Assembly: GCA_016703605.1 (NCBI GenBank)
Contig: JADJBU010000008.1
Span: forward strand, 91,819 to 155,818
DNA length: 64,000 nt
Source: Candidatus Villigracilis adiacens
GTDB taxonomy: Bacteria; Chloroflexota; Anaerolineae; Anaerolineales; Villigracilaceae
Direction of reading: 5' to 3'
Shown here one piece after another: positions 32,724-64,000 of this stretch. Under the pieces are notes generated by a model. It had not been told where the DNA came from and did not search any database. It was given only the letters and a program-made list of their open reading frames with translations. The translations under genes and the position numbers were made by a program. Position 1 is the first letter of the stretch, and every line of letters starts with the position of its first letter.

Positions 32724-32770
32724 ATAGGAAATAGGAAACCCATTCCCCATTCACCATTCCCCATTCCCCC
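32712..32770. repeat. ORF-less inverted heptamer hairpin (AATGGTG/CACCATT type)
   Basis: GGGGAATGGTGAAT (32712-25) is the perfect reverse complement of ATTCACCATTCCCC (32749-62). Confidence 0.85.
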
Positions 32771-42295: not shown

Positions 42296-43113
42296 GCATC
42301 AAACAAACCGTCAAAAGCATCATCCCCCAGCCGCTCTGGAGTTTCGTCCGCGATATCTACGACGGGTTCCGCCGCATTCCGCAGCTGCCCGCCGCGTATT
42401 TTCATCCCTGGCGGCGCGAGAGCATCAAACGTCTCGCCGCGTTGAAAGACATTCACAAAGGCAAACGCGCCTTCATCATCGGCAATGGACCCTCGCTGAA
42501 GCAGACCGATCTCAACAAGCTCAAGAACGAGATCACCTTCGGCATGAACCGCATCTATCTAGCCTTTCCCGATCTCGGTTTCACCACCTCGTATATCTGT
42601 GTCACCAACGACCTCGTCATCGAACAATTCGTCAACGATTTTCTCGCTCTGCAAGTTCCGCAATTCATCGCCTGGCGTTCGCGCCGTCACTACAACCCCC
42701 AATTACCAATCTCTAATCTCCCCACATTCGTTTACACAACATATACAGGCCCGCGTTTCGCCACAGACGTTCGCAATCGCGTCTGGGAAGGCGCAACCGT
42801 CACCAACCTTGCCTTGCAAATGGCGTATCACATGGGCATCGAGCAAGCCATCCTTATCGGCGTCGATCACAACTTCGCATCGAAAGGGGATGCCAACAAG
42901 ACCGTCGTCTCCGAAGGCGATGACCCGAATCATTTCATGCCGAATTATTTTGGCAAAGGCGTCAAATGGCAATTGCCCGATCTCGACACCTCTGAAGTCG
43001 GTTACATCATGGCGCGTGATGCCTACGTCAAAGCCGGTCGTCAGATCGTGGATGCAACCATCGGCGGCAAACTGACCGTCTTCCCCAAAGTCGACTACAA
43101 TTCCCTCTTCTAA
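42292..43113 (+). CDS. MAF_flag10/MptE-like (DUF115) putative nonulosonate-type transferase
   Basis: GKRAFIIGNGPSL, TFGMNRI, LQMAYHMG..ILIGVDH, VDATIGGKL. Confidence 0.75.
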   Translation: MSIKQTVKSIIPQPLWSFVRDIYDGFRRIPQLPAAYFHPWRRESIKRLAALKDIHKGKRAFIIGNGPSLKQTDLNKLKNEITFGMNRIYLAFPDLGFTTSYICVTNDLVIEQFVNDFLALQVPQFIAWRSRRHYNPQLPISNLPTFVYTTYTGPRFATDVRNRVWEGATVTNLALQMAYHMGIEQAILIGVDHNFASKGDANKTVVSEGDDPNHFMPNYFGKGVKWQLPDLDTSEVGYIMARDAYVKAGRQIVDATIGGKLTVFPKVDYNSLF

Positions 43114-57574: not shown

Positions 57575-59089
57575 CTACAAAACTTCTTCCAAATCATCCA
57601 CGTTCACCAACTCCACCCTGCCGATCTCAACTGGCAAAGCAAAGCGAATGGATTTTGCATTCTTCTTTTTATCCACCCGCATGGCTTGGATGATTTTCCC
57701 GCGCGGCATTTCAGCAGGGATTTGGATGGGCAGTCCCAACGCTGACAACGTGGACTCAATCGCCTCAACTGTGCTTTGACTTGCCAGCCCAACCCGAGCC
57801 GCATACCTCGCCTCAGCCGCCGTGCCGATGGCGATTGCCTCGCCATGCCGCAGCTCAAACTTGCTGACAAGTTCCACCGCATGTCCAATTGTGTGCCCCA
57901 GATTTAATTTCGCGCGGTCTCCCTTTTCATACGGGTCTTCTTCGATGACTTTTATCTTCACCGCCATTGCGCGTTTAACGACTTCTTCCAGATTCGACTT
58001 AACCCAGTCCATGCCCTGCTGGCACATGGCGAAGAGGTCTGGGTCTGAGATGATGCCGTGCTTGACCACCTCCGCCATGCCGGAGCGGAGCTCGCGATCT
58101 GTCAGCGTAAGCAAAAGGCTTGGGTCTGCAATGACCAGCTTCGGCGGATGGAAAGAGCCGATGAGGTTTTTTCCTTCCGGTAGATCAAAGCCAGTCTTCC
58201 CACCCAGCGAAGCATCCACCATGGAAAGCAGGGTCGTGGGAACGCCGATCCAATCGATGCCGCGCATGTAGGTGGACGCGGCAAAACCGGTCATGTCGCC
58301 GATCACGCCGCCGCCGAGGGCAATGACGGCGCTTTTGCGGTCGAGCCCGTTTTCGAGAAAAGCTTTCCACAGGCGCGAAACGGTTTCGAGATTTTTATGC
58401 TCTTCGCCCGCAGGCACGATAACGGATTTGGCGTTGAAGAGCGTTTGAATTTTTTCGAGATGATGCTTTGCTACGTTTTCGTCAGTGACGATGATGGGGT
58501 TTTGCAAAGATGGCAAGTTGAAAACTTGCCCTACGATGATGTCATATTCACCCATCGCGGAGAGATGATGCCTGCCGAGTTTAATTTGGGCTTCGCGCGC
58601 GTTTTGCTCGGAAGGCTTGTTGTCAACATGGTGTTTTAGTGTGAACGAGTTGTAATGTTCTTTGCGTTTTTCAAGCAACGCCGCGAGTTTATTTTTGAGA
58701 TCACCTGCCAACAGCGGACGTTTGCCCGGCTCATGCTGAATGCGGTTGAGCAGGGTTGGGAGTTCCGCCATGAGCAAAAGGATTTTGCCATTCGCTTCGG
58801 CGTAGTCACGGTTTTCATTGCGCAGCAACGCGCCGCCGCCAAGGGCGATGATTTTGTGTGAGTCTGTCACGCTGGAAGCGTGACCTACAAGTTCTTTTAA
58901 CGCGGCAGTTTCCATGTCACGAAAAGCGGTCTCGCCCTGCTGTTCCATGATCTGCGGAATGGACATGCCTGCATTTGTTTCGATCACGCGGTCAAGGTCT
59001 ATGAACGCGAGTTTGAGACTCCGCGCCAGAAGTTTGCCGAGGGTGCTTTTGCCCGTGCCGGGCGGTCCGTAGAGGAAGATATGTTTCAT
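57575..59089 (-). CDS. aroB: Bifunctional shikimate kinase / 3-dehydroquinate synthase (AroK-AroB fusion)
   Basis: GPPGTGKS..DLDRVIE..GGG (AroK), then GGGVIGD, PTTLL..DAS.GGKTG, NLGHTIGHA (AroB). Confidence 0.93.
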   Translation of the reverse strand: MKHIFLYGPPGTGKSTLGKLLARSLKLAFIDLDRVIETNAGMSIPQIMEQQGETAFRDMETAALKELVGHASSVTDSHKIIALGGGALLRNENRDYAEANGKILLLMAELPTLLNRIQHEPGKRPLLAGDLKNKLAALLEKRKEHYNSFTLKHHVDNKPSEQNAREAQIKLGRHHLSAMGEYDIIVGQVFNLPSLQNPIIVTDENVAKHHLEKIQTLFNAKSVIVPAGEEHKNLETVSRLWKAFLENGLDRKSAVIALGGGVIGDMTGFAASTYMRGIDWIGVPTTLLSMVDASLGGKTGFDLPEGKNLIGSFHPPKLVIADPSLLLTLTDRELRSGMAEVVKHGIISDPDLFAMCQQGMDWVKSNLEEVVKRAMAVKIKVIEEDPYEKGDRAKLNLGHTIGHAVELVSKFELRHGEAIAIGTAAEARYAARVGLASQSTVEAIESTLSALGLPIQIPAEMPRGKIIQAMRVDKKKNAKSIRFALPVEIGRVELVNVDDLEEVL

Positions 59090-59166
59090 AATGAAGAATG
59101 CAGAATGATGAATGAGGAATGGGGCGTGTTTACTTGTTTACTTGTCTACTTGTTTCCATGTTTACT
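59090..59166. repeat. Heptamer array (AATG-N3 x5) followed by an octamer array (TGTTTACT-type x5)
   Basis: AATGAAG AATGCAG AATGATG AATGAGG AATGGGG; TGTTTACT TGTTTACT TGTCTACT TGTTTCCA TGTTTACT. Confidence 0.85.
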
Positions 59167-59169
59167 TTC

Positions 59170-60345
59170 TTACTCCCAAAACACATGCGGAATATTATCC
59201 ATCGGCAGGTCTTCGAGGGTGGCTTTGCGCAAGGACTCAAAGCGCGGTTTCATTTCGTTCATTGAGTCACCGCCGAGTTTTTCGAGGAGCGCATCTGCCA
59301 AAACGAAGGCGACCATTGCCTCAAGAATCGGCACCGCGCGCGGAACGGGGCAGAAGTCGGAACGTTCGTATTTGGTGGGGGCATTCTCGCCAGAAGCAAG
59401 GTCAACGGTTTGTTGTGGGACGAGGGTTGTAGCAATCGGTTTCATCGCAGCGCGGATGATGATGGGCTGTCCGTTGCTTACTCCGCCTTCGGTGCCGCCG
59501 GCTCTGTTGGTTGAACGTTGAAGGTCGAAGGTTGAAGGTTGAAGGTTGATTGGGTCATGCGCTTTAGTTCCTAATCGTTTTGCATTTTCAAATGCGTCGC
59601 CGACTTCGACACCTTTGATCGCTTGAACGGACATGATGGCATGAGCCAGTTTGGCTTCGAGGCGTTTGTCCCATTGCACGAAACTACCCAAGCCAACGGG
59701 TAGATTGAGCGCAACGATTTCAAGGACGCCGCCGAGGGTATTTTTGCTGTGGATGGTCTTTTCGATTTCGGCGCGCATCTTTTCAGCGGAGGATTCGATT
59801 GGGCAACGGATATCCGATTCTTCGGCGCGAGTGAAGCGTTCTTCATAGGGCAAATCGCCAAAATCGGTTTGCACTTCGCCAATTGACGAAACGTATCCGC
59901 CAACGATGATGCCGAACTGGGCAAGGAAATGTTTACACACAGCTCCAGCCGCAACGCGCATGGTGGTCTCACGAGCGGAGGCGCGCTCCAATGCAGGGCG
60001 CAAATCTTTATAGCCATACTTGACTGCGCCGGTTAAGTCCGCGTGACCTGGGCGGGGAGCGGTCATCGGCTCGATGGCTTTGCCCTTCCATTTGACATGG
60101 TCATCGTTTTGCACGAGCAAAGCAATCGGCGCGCCGGTGGTTTCGCCGCCCATCACGCCGCCGAGAATTTGCACCGTGTCTTTCTCGATCTTCATGCGCC
60201 CGCCGGAGCCGTATCCCTGCTGGCGGCGGGTGAGTTCTTTGTTGATAATGTCTGGCGAGAGGGGAAGCCCGGCGGGGATGCCATCGAGAATGGTGGTGAG
60301 TGATGGTCCGTGGGATTCACCGGCGGTGAGAAAGCGTAAGGGCAT
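59170..60345 (-). CDS. aroC: Chorismate synthase
   Basis: LRFLTAGESHG, PRPGHAD, ERASARET, NRAGGTEGG, KPIAT, RSD; contains an in-frame heptamer tract at 59509-59550. Confidence 0.96.
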   Translation of the reverse strand: MPLRFLTAGESHGPSLTTILDGIPAGLPLSPDIINKELTRRQQGYGSGGRMKIEKDTVQILGGVMGGETTGAPIALLVQNDDHVKWKGKAIEPMTAPRPGHADLTGAVKYGYKDLRPALERASARETTMRVAAGAVCKHFLAQFGIIVGGYVSSIGEVQTDFGDLPYEERFTRAEESDIRCPIESSAEKMRAEIEKTIHSKNTLGGVLEIVALNLPVGLGSFVQWDKRLEAKLAHAIMSVQAIKGVEVGDAFENAKRLGTKAHDPINLQPSTFDLQRSTNRAGGTEGGVSNGQPIIIRAAMKPIATTLVPQQTVDLASGENAPTKYERSDFCPVPRAVPILEAMVAFVLADALLEKLGGDSMNEMKPRFESLRKATLEDLPMDNIPHVFWE

Positions 60346-60355
60346 GGGGTCTCCG

Positions 60356-60418
60356 AGTGGAAAGTGGTGAGTGGAAAGTGGAAAGTTATCAGTTGTCAGT
60401 GAATAGTGATAAGTATTC
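60356..60418. repeat. Heptamer array x9, all units AGT-N4
   Basis: AGTGGAA AGTGGTG AGTGGAA AGTGGAA AGTTATC AGTTGTC AGTGAAT AGTGATA AGTATTC. Confidence 0.88.
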
Positions 60419-60446
60419 AAAAGAGGAAAGAAGAAAGAAGACGGAA

Positions 60447-61271
60447 TTATGATTCGATAGCTTGATAAAGAATGTCGCGCGGCGGGTTGTGTCCTGTCCA
60501 TTTTTCGAAGGCGAGGGCGGCTTGTTCGATGAGCATGCCCAAGCCGGTGGAGGCGTTCAGTCCCTGGGCGCGGGCGTCGCGGACGAGTTTGGTCTCACGT
60601 GGGTTATACACTAAATCATAAACGAATGTGCGTTTCGATAAAACCGTATTTTCAGGCAGGGGTGAGGTTTCGATGTTGGGTGTCATGCCGAGAGGAGTGG
60701 TGTTGACGAGTAAGTGGAAAGTTAAAAGTGGAAAGTCGGCGAGGTTGGTAATTGGTAATTGGTAATTGGTAAATGAGTCTGCGAGTTTTTGCGCTTGTTC
60801 AATTCGACGGGCCGCAATTGTGACGTTCCAGCCATCGTTAAGCAAAGCATAAACAACGGCTCTGGCAGAACCTCCCGCACCGAGTACCAACGCAGAATGC
60901 GGAATGATGAATGATGAATTTGAAACCCTCTTCAAATCGGAAAGGAAACCTGGCGCGTCGGTATTGTCTCCGATGAGTTTGTCGTCTCGCATATAAATGG
61001 TATTGACTGCGCCAATGGATTTTGCTGTTTGCGTGAGTTCATCCATGAACCCGATCACATTTTGTTTATGCGGAATGGTGACATTGAGTCCGTGGATTTC
61101 GCCTGCACGGACACGGGTTAGGAGATTAAAAAGTTCTTGCTTATCATCCGGGTGAATGGGGAATAGAGAATAGTTACCTTGCAAGTTAAACGCACTCAAA
61201 GCAGCCGTATGAATCTTTGGCGAAAGTGAGTGTCCTAAAGGGTAACCGATCAAACCGAGTTGATAATTCAT
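60447..61271 (-). CDS. aroE: Shikimate dehydrogenase
   Basis: GYPLGHSLSP, NVTIPHK, GAVNT, NTD, LGAGGSAR, DLVYNP, GMLIEQA; two in-frame heptamer tracts. Confidence 0.95.
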   Translation of the reverse strand: MNYQLGLIGYPLGHSLSPKIHTAALSAFNLQGNYSLFPIHPDDKQELFNLLTRVRAGEIHGLNVTIPHKQNVIGFMDELTQTAKSIGAVNTIYMRDDKLIGDNTDAPGFLSDLKRVSNSSFIIPHSALVLGAGGSARAVVYALLNDGWNVTIAARRIEQAQKLADSFTNYQLPITNLADFPLLTFHLLVNTTPLGMTPNIETSPLPENTVLSKRTFVYDLVYNPRETKLVRDARAQGLNASTGLGMLIEQAALAFEKWTGHNPPRDILYQAIES

Positions 61272-61281
61272 CTTTACCTGT

Positions 61282-62637
61282 TTACTTGTTTCCTTGTGTA
61301 CGTAATTTCTCAAGGACTTCAAAGTAGTTTGGGAAAGTCTTGGAAACACAGGAGGGATTTTCGATGGTGACGCCGTCAACGCGCAAGCCGATGAGGGAGA
61401 ATGCCATTGCCATGCGGTGGTCGTTGTAGGTTTGGATGGTTGCAGGTTTGAAGGTTGAAAGTTGAAGGTTGAAGGTTGGGTGGATGGTCATGCCGTCTGC
61501 GTGTTCTTCGACTTGCACACCTAAACGGGCGAGTTCGGCGCAGGTTGCGTGGACACGGTCTGTTTCCTTCACACGGGCGGAAGCAATGCCGCGAATTCGT
61601 GTTGGTGACGAAGCGAAGGGAGCGACGGCGGCGAGGGTTTGGGCTGTGTCTGGGATGTCGCGCATGTCTACGTCTACGCCGTGCAAGAGCGAGTGACCAG
61701 TGACCAGTAAACAGTTATCAGTTTCTTGTACAGTACAGCCCATTTGTTGAAGGACATCAAGAAAGGCGATGTCGCCTTGAACAGACTTGCGCGAGATGTT
61801 CTCTACTTTGACAGTCCCACCGCAGATGGCAGGGGCAGCGAAGAAGTAGGAGGCGGCGGAGGCGTCACTTTCAAGAGGATACGAGTTACGAGTTACAGAT
61901 TGCGTAACTTGTAACTCGTAACTCGCGGGCGGCACACGAAAAAAATCATAACCACGCCGTTCCACTTCCACGCCAAAGTCTTGCATGATGGAGAGAGTCA
62001 TATCCACGTAGGGTTTAGAGTTGAGGTCGGTGGTGAGCTTCACTTCAACGGGAGTTTGAGCGTACGGGGCAACCATCAATAAAGCCGATAAGAATTGAGA
62101 GGAAATATCTCCCGCAATCGTTGTCCTTCCGCCCTTCAAGCCCGATGCCGTAATTTTTACTGGCGGGCAAATCTGCCTTCCGCCTTCCGCTTTCTGCATT
62201 GGCTGAATATCACACCCCAATTGTGCCAATGCCTCCACCAAATCCCCGATCGGACGTTCGCGCATTCTAGGTTCGCCATCCAGAATATATTCGCCGTTTC
62301 CAAGAGTCAGAAAGGCGGAAAGGAATCTGGCGGCAGTGCCTGCGTTGCCAATGAAGAGTTCCGCTTTCTTTGCAGGAATTTTCCCGCCCAGCCCGGTAAC
62401 CGTCATGGAGAAATTTGCTTCATCCAGTTGAACGTCGAAGCCGAGAGTTTGCAGGGCTTTGGCGAAGTAGCGCGAGTCGTCGGAGAAGAGGGCGTTGGTG
62501 AGATGAGTTGTCCCGTTTGCAAGGGCGGCAATGAGCAAGGCGCGGTTGGTGAGGGATTTCGAACCGGGCACGCGGACGGTGGCGTTGAGGGGGTGGTGGA
62601 TGGGGGGGATGCGGAGGGAAGGGGGGAGAGTGGGCAT
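61282..62637 (-). CDS. aroA: 3-phosphoshikimate 1-carboxyvinyltransferase (EPSP synthase)
   Basis: PGSKSLTNR, GNAGTAARF, SSQFLSALL, KETDR, DHRMAM, KTFP; three in-frame heptamer tracts. Confidence 0.96.
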   Translation of the reverse strand: MPTLPPSLRIPPIHHPLNATVRVPGSKSLTNRALLIAALANGTTHLTNALFSDDSRYFAKALQTLGFDVQLDEANFSMTVTGLGGKIPAKKAELFIGNAGTAARFLSAFLTLGNGEYILDGEPRMRERPIGDLVEALAQLGCDIQPMQKAEGGRQICPPVKITASGLKGGRTTIAGDISSQFLSALLMVAPYAQTPVEVKLTTDLNSKPYVDMTLSIMQDFGVEVERRGYDFFRVPPASYELQVTQSVTRNSYPLESDASAASYFFAAPAICGGTVKVENISRKSVQGDIAFLDVLQQMGCTVQETDNCLLVTGHSLLHGVDVDMRDIPDTAQTLAAVAPFASSPTRIRGIASARVKETDRVHATCAELARLGVQVEEHADGMTIHPTFNLQLSTFKPATIQTYNDHRMAMAFSLIGLRVDGVTIENPSCVSKTFPNYFEVLEKLRTQGNK

Positions 62638-62714
62638 GGTGGGGAGTGGAAAGTGGGGAGTGGAAAGTGAATAGTGAATAGTGAATAGTGAATAGTGATC
62701 AGTGAACAGTGAGA
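62638..62714. repeat. Heptamer array x11 (RGT-N4) between tyrA and aroA
   Basis: GGTGGGG AGTGGAA AGTGGGG AGTGGAA (AGTGAAT)4 AGTGATC AGTGAAC AGTGAGA; contains the tyrA stop codon. Confidence 0.9.
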
Positions 62715-63556
62715 GAGTGGTAGGCGGATTGTGATTCGTTGAGGAGCGATTCAAGTTTGGTGAAATCTTCTGAAGATAACGCAGACTCGATCTCTGCCAG
62801 TTGACTTTGCATTCCACGCAGAGCATTTAATACATTTTCGCGGTTGGATTGTAAGACGCCCAACATCATGGAAGATGATGTGCCTGCGAGTCTACTCGTG
62901 GACTTGAAGCCGGGTCCAACAAAAGGGGCGACGTCTTCGGGTGTAGTGCGTGCCAGTGCAGACGAGATCAGAAATGGCAGATGGCTTGTGGAAGCAAGGA
63001 TGCGGTCATGGTCTACGGCATCCAGCGTTTTGCCTTTGGCACCGAGGGCTTCGATGATCTGATATGCGGCAGAGATGGCGCGAGGCGATGTGCGATCCAG
63101 CGGAGTCAACAAAAAAGGCGCAGCGTAGTAAAGCGTTCTCTCTGCATTCGCCAGCGAAAGCTTTTCTTTGCCGCAAATGGGATGCCCGCCGATGGGGTCG
63201 AAGCGTTCAGGCAATTTTGCCATCGCTTCGACGACCAATCGTTTTGTGGAGCCCAAGTCCATGACGATGCAGGGATGGGGAATGGTAATTGGTAATTGGT
63301 CAATGAGTGTGATGATTGACTGGACTGGCGCTGACAGAATCACAACATCAACATCGGCGGGGAGGGTGGCAGGGTCGCTGTCGGCGTAGTCCACGATATG
63401 TTGGGACAGAGCAAGCTCGAGCGTGGCAGGATGCGGGTCAATTCCATAAAGAGCCGCACATTTGCCGCGCAGTCCCAATGCCAACGAGCCGCCCATCAAG
63501 CCCAATCCGATGATGGCGATTTTTGATTCGGAGAGTGTAAAGTTTATGTCTTCCAT
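62699..63556 (-). CDS. tyrA: Prephenate dehydrogenase
   Basis: [30 protein letters not shown]; start at 63556. Confidence 0.92.
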
Positions 63557-64000
63557 TGGGTAATTGGTAATTGGTAATTGGAGATTACCAATCTCCTCTC
63601 CACCGCCTCCGCCACCGCTTTGACCTGCTTCACCATTTTGGCAAAGGCTTCGGGTGTGAGCGACTGCTTGCCATCGGAAATGGCGTGTGGCGGGTCTTGA
63701 TGGACTTCGACGATGAGACCGTCGGCGCCAGCGGCGATGCTTGCTTTGGCAATGGATTGCACATACGCCGAGTCGCCGGTGGAGTGGGATGGGTCCATGA
63801 CAACTGGGAGATGCGTGAGTTTCTTGAGCACGGGCACGGCGTTGATGTCGGTGGTGTTGCGCGTGGCGGTTTCGAATGTGCGGATGCCGCGCTCGCAAAG
63901 AATGACGCGATGATTGCCGCCGTTGAGAATGTATTCGCTCGCCATGAGCATTTCTTCGATGGTGGCAGACATGCCGCGCTTGAACAAGACGGGCGTGCGG
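63544..64000 (-). CDS. aroF: DAHP synthase (type I-beta), C-terminal part; the gene starts beyond the window
   Basis: [33 protein letters not shown]; C-terminus ([13 protein letters not shown]) is encoded by a GGTAATT heptamer tract. Confidence 0.9.

Follow-up and report, generated by a model that had tools for sequence, protein, structure and literature searches.

In-frame heptanucleotide arrays in loops of single-copy shikimate-pathway enzymes of Candidatus Villigracilis adiacens, probably tolerated members of a genome-wide repeat population

Tandem arrays of 7-nt units run in frame through the genes for AroC, AroE, AroA and TyrA in Candidatus Villigracilis adiacens, a wastewater bacterium of the Chloroflexota (Anaerolineae, Anaerolineales, Candidatus Villigracilaceae). 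The genes lie in a window of 64,000 nt, that is, the whole stretch of DNA analysed here (contig JADJBU010000008.1 of assembly GCA_016703605.1, positions 91,819 to 155,818), and plain coordinates refer to this window. These tracts are probably tolerated, translated members of a population of heptanucleotide arrays that extends over the whole genome and is filtered by selection. The encoded peptides, such as NYQLPIT and NLQPSTF, are most likely by-products of this process rather than adaptations.

The affected genes belong to an aromatic amino-acid operon on the minus strand at the right end of the window, which comprises aroF (partial), tyrA, aroA, aroE, aroC, aroK/B and aroQ. All five genes scanned, from aroF to aroC, have full-length Pfam domains, identifying DAHP synthase, prephenate dehydrogenase, EPSP synthase, shikimate dehydrogenase and chorismate synthase. 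The catalytic motifs are retained, as a first-pass annotation of this DNA had claimed. AroC, AroE and AroA are encoded by one copy each in a genome that is 99.45% complete, and the tract-bearing genes must therefore be the working copies. The four genes that contain internal tracts are the following.

59170 to 60345, minus strand: aroC, chorismate synthase, 391 aa (PF01264, E=2e-118, full length; 1 genome-wide match)
60447 to 61271, minus strand: aroE, shikimate dehydrogenase, 274 aa (PF08501, PF18317 and PF01488; single copy by tblastn)
61282 to 62637, minus strand: aroA, EPSP synthase, 451 aa, single copy (PF00275, E=6e-122)
62699 to 63556, minus strand: tyrA, prephenate dehydrogenase, 285 aa (PF02153 and PF20463)

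Tandem Repeats Finder (TRF) reports a head-to-tail, period-7 array at every named tract, and translation gives the peptides and coordinates that the first-pass annotation had quoted. Two AroA tracts are additional to those it had noticed, namely 62175-62194 (QKAEGGRQ) and the inverted pair at 61880-61925. With five TRF arrays, aroA ranks among the most array-rich genes of the genome in the per-gene array distribution. The tracts, together with related features of the window, are as follows.

59509 to 59550, minus strand: AroC tract, sense (TCAACCT)x5.9 (TRF 59509-59549, GGTTGAA x5.9)
60714 to 60773, minus strand: AroE double tract, (TTACCAA)x4 then (ACTTTCC)x3.6, peptide FTNYQLPITNLADFPLLTFH, aa 167-186 (TRF 60712-60736, AAGTGGA x3.6; 60745-60772, TTGGTAA x4.0, 100% matches)
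60894 to 60920, minus strand: AroE tract, (ATTCATC)x2.6, peptide NSSFIIPHS, aa 118-126 (TRF 60902-60919, GAATGAT x2.6)
61149 to 61175, minus strand: AroE conserved heptamer-like tract, CTATTCT CTATTCC CCATTCA, peptide NYSLFPIHP
61438 to 61479, minus strand: AroA tract, (CAACCTT)x5.7, peptide PTFNLQLSTF (TRF 61438-61478, GGTTGAA x5.7)
61690 to 61725, minus strand: AroA imperfect array, ACTGnTn x~4.7, peptide ETDNCLLVTGHS (TRF 61692-61708, AGTGACC x2.4)
61879 to 61925, minus strand: AroA in-frame inverted pair, (CGAGTTA)x3.3 ... (GTAACTC)x2.4, peptide SYELQVTQSVTRNSY (found by TRF)
62173 to 62205, minus strand: AroA tract, (GAAGGCG)x2.9, peptide QPMQKAEGGRQ (TRF 62175-62194, GCCTTCC x2.9)
62639 to 62712, no strand assigned: intergenic aroA-tyrA arrays, polymorphic between strains, AGTGGAA / AGTGAAT (found by TRF)
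63284 to 63304, minus strand: TyrA tract, (ACCAATT)x2.6, peptide IDQLPIT (TRF 63283-63300, TGGTAAT x2.6)
63544 to 63586, minus strand: AroF C-terminal extension, a (CCAATTA)x3.3 junction array read through (TRF 63559-63581, GGTAATT x3.3)
42700 to 42720, plus strand: tract in an MptE-like (PF01973) gene, CAATTAC CAATCTC TAATCTC, peptide QLPISNL

The arrays were traced through contigs from independent samples, in which four unrelated metagenomes span the AroC, AroE, AroA and TyrA tracts without a gap and differ by 0-6 substitutions. The tracts are thus not an assembly artefact. Metatranscriptome contigs pass uninterrupted through three of these four tracts, with no excision, and the inverted pair in AroA is likewise unbroken in a metatranscriptome contig. 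Judged from their reading frame, the tracts should be translated as part of the enzymes.

Arrays of this kind are distributed over the entire genome. TRF returned 815 period-7 rows that fall into about 190 unit classes and are densest between genes. In a gene model of 3846 genes with 83.7% coding DNA, which reproduces the operon, 319 period-7 arrays lie in 3.72 Mb of coding DNA against 395 in 0.717 Mb of intergenic DNA, a density about 6-fold higher between genes. At the neighbouring periods, intergenic DNA holds 12 arrays (period 6) and 121 arrays (period 8). For coding DNA, five codon shuffles gave a mean of 47.8 period-7 arrays, and periods 10 and 11 showed no excess. Internal arrays with a TRF score of at least 40 and more than 30 codons from a gene end numbered 102-112, compared with 0-1 in the shuffles. 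In all, 258 coding arrays are separated from the gene ends by more than 30 codons; 178 of the 3846 genes (about 5%) contain an internal array, and these arrays are distributed evenly along gene length. The codon shuffles, together with reversed-pattern controls, rule out a chance or codon-usage artefact.

The coding and intergenic arrays appear to be drawn from one population. The top families are common to both; for instance, AATTACC accounts for 86 arrays genome-wide, 27 of them inside genes. Families are also genome-specific, and coding tracts mostly use those that are common in their own genome. Here G000 denotes the genome studied and other G numbers the genomes of its relatives. Searches for AATTACC x3 with at most 1 mismatch gave 71 matches in G000, 46 in G004, 25 in G011, 4 in G001 and 0 in G009, while AATTACG x3 gave 13 in G001 and 0 in G000; the reversed patterns gave 0 matches. 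In G001, the AATTACG family is found in AroA, AroE and the spacers. A proteome-wide count suggested by the first-pass annotation gave 38 exact 7-mers of NYQLPIT and its rotations in 33 proteins.

Selection on coding arrays is visible in their orientation and size. Where the reverse complement of the unit holds a stop codon, in-gene orientation is 92:13, and where both strands are stop-free it is 110:96, which indicates that stop codons set the orientation of in-gene arrays. A transcription-coupled orientation bias of intergenic arrays was also considered and rejected, the bias being only 58:42. Arrays of at least 6 units make up 4% of the coding set and 15% of the intergenic set.

The positions occupied by the tracts are tolerant ones. 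Outgroup conservation at tract residues is 0.455, compared with 0.754 for random placement, and 0 of 10000 permutations gave a value as low (P<1e-4); the tracts thus lie in the least conserved, indel-prone segments. Gapped alignment columns amount to 13.9% under tracts and 0.65% elsewhere. In AlphaFold2 models (pLDDT 78.5 for AroE and 81.3 for AroA), both AroE tracts and three AroA tracts form coil between regular elements, with ETDNCLLVTGHS as the exception. The three inserted AroA tracts align to gaps relative to homologs in the Protein Data Bank (PDB), at +5, +6 and +5 aa. Conservation, modelled secondary structure and these gaps together place the tracts at apparently tolerant positions away from the active site. 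The term "loops" seems mostly correct for them, although the models suggest that they are not always floppy.

Individual tracts differ in how they have altered the protein. The AroC peptide INLQPSTFDLQRST (aa 266-279) takes the place of a hairpin between HD and NRAGG; it is +1 and +2 aa relative to PDB 1q1l and 1ztb and thus near-equal in length to the hairpin replaced. The AroE double tract is modelled as coil between H157-165 and E187-190 (pLDDT 83-87), at a place where E. coli AroE presumably has an edge strand plus a loop. The NSSFIIPHS tract, also coil in the model, directly precedes the GAGG nucleotide-binding loop. In AroA, PTFNLQLSTF is a +5 aa (+15 nt) insertion, modelled as coil or short helix; it aligns to a gap in 14 of 14 orthologs and in PDB 7tm4 and 5xwb, and the 15 nt are missing in a relative with about 94% identity. 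The inverted pair SYELQVTQSVTRNSY, which adds +7 aa relative to orthologs and +6 relative to PDB 7tm4, falls in a 16-residue coil with a pLDDT of 63. The QPMQKAEGGRQ loop (+5 aa relative to PDB homologs) is modelled as coil at 147-159, and in other species the same GAAGGCG family encodes peptides of the NAEGGMQ type, both in AroC and in AroA. The first-pass annotation had distinguished insertions from same-length overwriting, and the measured lengths bear this out: AroA 61445 is +15 nt, AroC is +6 nt over the genus mode, and the AroE segment remains at 93 nt in most species.

Other parts of that annotation needed correction. It had listed ETDNCLLVTGHS as a heptamer tract, and an imperfect array is indeed present, but the peptide forms a conserved beta-hairpin (model strands E302-306 and E309-314, pLDDT about 90), is equal in length to PDB homologs and is kept in the outgroup-family locus L042. 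The main inference of the annotation, that the repeat process remodels protein loops, is supported by the hypervariable ortholog sites described below, but not all tracts are floppy surface loops, as this regular hairpin shows. The gene at 42700-42720 does contain the QLPISNL heptamers, but its "MAF-like" label is replaced by PF01973 (MptE-like). The proposed rule that three units (21 nt) preserve the frame is arithmetically true; however, length differences at the tract sites are 3, 6, 15, 21, 24, 27 and 36 nt, all multiples of 3 and only some of 21.

The syntenic operon was compared with those of 12 congeners and 6 genomes of the same order, with 75 further AroC orthologs added. Every tract site is hypervariable, and congeners carry other heptamer-derived peptides there. 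The AroC loop is built from CAACCTT in the window and from CAATTAC, AACTCGT, TCACTCG, TACGTAA or AGTCAAA in other species. In 53 of the 75 orthologs the best lag is period 7, and identity at lag 7 averages 0.50, compared with 0.20-0.32 for the remaining lags. Most of the loops measure 39 or 45 nt, and the addition of a second family (GCAGAAG, NAEGGMQ) extends the length to as much as 87 nt. No periodicity is found in the loop of AroC orthologs at or below about 75% identity, and in outgroups it is mostly non-periodic and 66-69 nt long. Distant relatives thus carry non-periodic loops of basal length.

The remaining sites behave in a similar way. In AroE, the stretch from F167 to LLVN measures 93 nt in most species and consists of two back-to-back arrays with differing units, the first being TTACCAA, TTACAAG, GAATTAC or ATTATCC and the second ACTTTCC, TTCCGCA, CCTTCGA or TTCATCT. 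The segment of the NSSFIIPHS tract spans 63-114 nt in orthologs and contains other heptamers, for example, ATTGGAG or ATCGGGA. At the TyrA site, congeners read LPSFTSNP, LQITISHP and similar peptides, and the outgroup L042 reads ISNLQPPTSNLQPP from (AATCTCC)x6.9. The AroF C-terminal extension overlaps the tyrA start, and alignments of AroF orthologs to the query, a 151-aa fragment of AroF, end at about residue 138-142. At the AroE NYSLFPIHP position, TRF found CTATTCC x2-3 in orthologs of G013, G005, G009 and G011. This repeat may have been fixed as part of the conserved protein, because it is present in G009, whose operon locus is otherwise array-free.

Families change rapidly along the phylogeny. 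A tree of 73 AroC rows was used, since a tree of four operon proteins came out star-like and unresolved. On this tree, the family label needs 24 changes, where the minimum is 5 and shuffled labels give 29.1, and the smallest well-supported clade around the window (8 rows) holds three families. Identity at third codon positions within the genus is about 0.50, that is, saturated, and tract identity is 0.53, while arrays are 83-100% uniform. Arrays that are still uniform despite saturated divergence must be either young or continually homogenised. The AroC gene of G010 (L038) is split across two frames near residue 28. The split, due either to a frameshift or to an error of assembly, is not at the heptamer loop but at a distance from it.

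Such switching could in principle reflect old loop alleles that are exchanged between species by homologous recombination. The ACTCGT-type AroC loops, which share a flanking "AM...S" across non-sister species, fit this idea. Flank identity, however, is the same for same-family and different-family pairs (0.789 vs 0.790 over 120 nt and 0.764 vs 0.765 over 30 nt), which speaks against loop-allele transfer, and allele shuffling would leave unexplained why the families match the repertoire of each genome. With no signal in the flanking DNA, this explanation was rejected as very improbable.

The proposed explanation, tolerated arrays filtered by selection, would operate as follows. Arrays would be continually seeded, expanded, contracted and replaced throughout the genome, and selection would keep those coding arrays whose sense strand is free of stops, whose net length is divisible by three and whose site is permissive. 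Repeats would in this way quickly remodel a few loops of single-copy housekeeping enzymes that are conserved elsewhere. Length change itself was observed between strains. Over about 24 kb, the only multi-base indels between near-identical strains were -14 nt at 62657 and +14 nt at 32738, as seen in Logan contigs, which break at arrays. Both are two-unit steps in intergenic heptamer arrays, with no single-unit step (n=2), and the deletion at 62657 occurs in three metagenomes, the contigs of which exceed 99.5% identity in all other respects. Intergenic arrays thus change length between strains in whole-unit steps, by slippage in unit register.

Unit steps of this kind, as well as the heptanucleotide repeat that acts as a coding switch in E. 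coli K1 neuO (PMC13001214), raise the question of phase variation, in which repeat number would shift the frame and turn enzymes on or off, as in neuO or Haemophilus loci. This is hardly credible for the tracts described here. The genes encode biosynthetic enzymes and are present in one copy each, the arrays are short, at 2.4-6 units, and the sites are internal loops rather than gene 5' ends. Metagenome and metatranscriptome contigs covering the operon contain no frame-shifted variant, and the frame is kept in all orthologs examined except the split AroC of G010, away from the tract.

Several observations weigh against tolerance of ordinary slippage products as a complete account. Within-species length variation of the coding tracts was not seen: the metagenome and metatranscriptome contigs contain no ±7 or ±14 nt variants, although assembled contigs can hide rare variants. 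Simple slippage is also insufficient in another respect, as coding arrays are as uniform as intergenic ones (86.5% vs 85.4%, and 83.7% vs 83.2% matches, at equal copy number). Under slippage, coding arrays should homogenise less, because single-unit slips are frameshifts in essential genes. In addition, family switches between near-identical species, toward families common in the genome, look like replacement rather than drift. Length-preserving templated copying is therefore suspected to be needed for the homogeneity of coding arrays and for the family switches. A further difficulty is that arrays concentrate in certain operons. The 10-kb bin with the shikimate operon (G000:C8:150001-160000, of which window positions 58182-64000 are a part) holds 20 period-7 arrays, the genome maximum, where bins hold a mean of 1.8 and the next highest holds 12. 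The second densest bin is that of the histidine biosynthesis operon (G000:C7:40000-50000), and several congeners carry 14-15 arrays in a shikimate operon locus of 7.7-10.5 kb. Neither the hot spots nor their recurrence in congeners would be predicted by a purely neutral process.

These hot spots suggest arrays that serve as selected cis-acting signals in RNA or DNA, such as binding or processing sites or elements tuning mRNA stability or translation, whose in-gene copies would be functional and only incidentally translated. Post-transcriptional roles have been proposed for intergenic heptamer repeats (PMC4679880, PMC4692102). In agreement with such a role, the shikimate and histidine operons are the sites where arrays are densest, the hot spot returns in several congeners, array positions are retained at the same sites despite saturated divergence, and inverted pairs could fold into hairpins. 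The unit sequence at a given site, however, differs even between near-identical species, and the congeners G009, G015 and G016 have only 0-1 arrays in the shikimate operon. Furthermore, intergenic orientation relative to transcription is only weakly biased, and structural tolerance alone predicts the in-gene positions. A cis-acting function is regarded as unlikely.

The uniformity of coding arrays and the replacement-like switches bear on a templated "writer" acting instead of replication slippage, in which arrays would be copied in blocks, with other arrays or an RNA or DNA molecule as the template. Existing arrays would be the preferred landing places of new ones, and loops would therefore be overwritten at constant length. 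Such copying could proceed by gene conversion, by template switching at hairpins, or by a retroelement-like process via Avd-like four-helix-bundle proteins. This alternative, less likely but a serious possibility, accounts for the genome-specific families shared by dispersed loci, for sister species that switch families without shared flanking DNA, for an AroE segment that stays at 93 nt while its units change, for composite loops of two adjacent families and for coding arrays that match intergenic ones in homogeneity. Same-family arrays also cluster within 2 kb (34 pairs, compared with 16.6 ± 4.3 expected). The enzyme and the template are as yet hypothetical, however, and the strain polymorphisms are plain unit-register indels.

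The link to Avd-like proteins comes from genes of the PF05635 family. In G000, 9 of 10 such genes are flanked by inverted arrays of abundant families, and PF05635 gene count correlates with operon array density across genomes (Spearman 0.59, P=0.008, n=19, not corrected for phylogeny). On the other side, the dominant family of G001 and G004 (AATTACG or AATTACC) flanks none of the 16 PF05635 cassettes examined, and the arms there can have a period of 8 or 9. G003 has no PF05635 match yet carries six operon arrays, and G009 has four PF05635 genes and one array. Moreover, the sole reverse transcriptase adjoins its own Avd-like gene, as in an ordinary diversity-generating retroelement. A model with one PF05635 master gene per repeat family was rejected: the arms of nine genes in G000 fit it, but the dominant families of G001 and G004 flank none of the 16 cassettes. 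For the same reason, the connection between PF05635 and the arrays is treated as an association only.

These loci have features of their own. The PF05635 loci of G001 and G004 (L045-L060) carry inverted arrays with 8- or 9-nt units, for example, TAGTTTGA, GTACACAG, AGAGAATTG and TAGAGGAT. About 800 nt separate the only reverse transcriptase of the genome studied (PF00078, G000:C26:542100-543881) from a PF05635 (Avd-like) gene of the same strand, and the pair looks like a diversity-generating retroelement. This PF05635 gene is without heptamer arms, unlike the other nine.

In its strongest form, the writer would be a dedicated templated homogeniser with genome-specific units, present in Villigracilaceae and perhaps in many phyla, that overwrites permissive loops of core enzymes length-neutrally. 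It would be linked to the Avd-like cassettes and focused on the shikimate and histidine operons, where arrays might double as RNA-level signals. This is an unlikely proposition, and tolerance of a genome-wide array population under selection is still preferred for the tracts of the operon.

Among known systems, the arrays most resemble heptanucleotide simple sequence repeats (SSRs), with tandem 7-nt units, an excess of period 7, a mostly intergenic location between co-directional genes, frequent inverted pairs, variable copy number and no known generator. Described cases include the cyanobacterial STRR and the GGGNATC repeats of Xanthomonas and Nostoc (Rehm 2015, PMC4692102) and the TAACTGA repeats of Beggiatoaceae and cyanobacteria (MacGregor 2015, PMC4679880), and the survey of Mrazek 2007, as cited in these two papers, is a further source. 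Published heptamer repeats are described as depleted within coding sequence, and those in open reading frames lie at protein termini or in hypothetical proteins (PMC4679880). In contrast, about 190 unit classes coexist here, genes, those of single-copy core enzymes among them, hold about 260 arrays deep in their interior, and orthologous loops carry different families in sister species. In 2015, PMC4692102 noted that no detailed literature on heptameric repeats existed. Literature searches found no later account of a generator of heptanucleotide repeats, and no published description of heptamer arrays in internal loops of housekeeping enzymes or in Chloroflexota.

A second parallel concerns repeats inserted into genes. 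It resides in dispersed repeat DNA that is in frame in housekeeping genes, translated, located at tolerant surface positions off the catalytic residues and also present between genes as the same family. These are the properties of the Rickettsia palindromic elements (RPEs), reportedly described by Ogata et al. in 2000. RPEs, however, are palindromes of roughly 100-150 bp with conserved sequence, while the tracts described here are 15-45-nt tandem arrays of many unit families. Only some of them form inverted pairs (of the tracts listed, the AroA pair at 61879-61925 only), and they also overwrite loops length-neutrally and turn over much faster. In-frame repeat DNA of the RPE type in core genes is summarised in PMC10969869.

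The neuO gene of E. coli K1 (PMC13001214) shares coding heptanucleotide tandem repeats in which copy numbers in multiples of three keep the frame. It is, however, an accessory, phage-borne gene with a 5' repeat that acts as an on/off switch, and the present tracts, found in essential single-copy enzymes, are short and internal and do not vary within the species as sampled. Contingency SSR loci in general are usually accessory, surface or restriction-modification genes with the repeat near the 5' end; the present arrays are internal in single-copy shikimate enzymes.

Housekeeping enzymes are usually seen as strongly constrained and as evolving by point substitution. In the present case, specific loops of single-copy and presumably essential enzymes owe most of their change to a repeat process that acts genome-wide and switches loop sequences between species whose proteins are otherwise 93-95% identical. 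The tracts show, as a natural map, where AroA, AroC and AroE are structurally permissive. They also call for caution in annotation and phylogenetics, as the residues of these loops are not homologous one to one. The group, for which dozens of close genomes as well as strain-level metagenomes exist, offers a tractable comparative system for the origin of heptanucleotide repeats in bacteria.

Two further observations concern the reach of such loops. The outgroup locus L042 (G021, a different family of the same order) has in-frame heptamer tracts at the same sites, namely AATAACC/AATTACC in AroE, an inverted GACGACA/CGTCGTC pair in AroC and VRAIHES x3 in AroA, and its genome has 10 PF05635 genes. 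In some species, heptamer loops hold other in-frame mini-elements (in the AroC loop of L093, L108 and L118 and of L094, L124 and L129, and before LLVN in the AroE of L028 and L029). One is a G/C-rich palindrome encoding SPLPxGEGxGVR, and another encodes PFDxAQGK or PFDKLS. Since these elements are found there as well, the heptamer loops act as general landing sites for small repeats.

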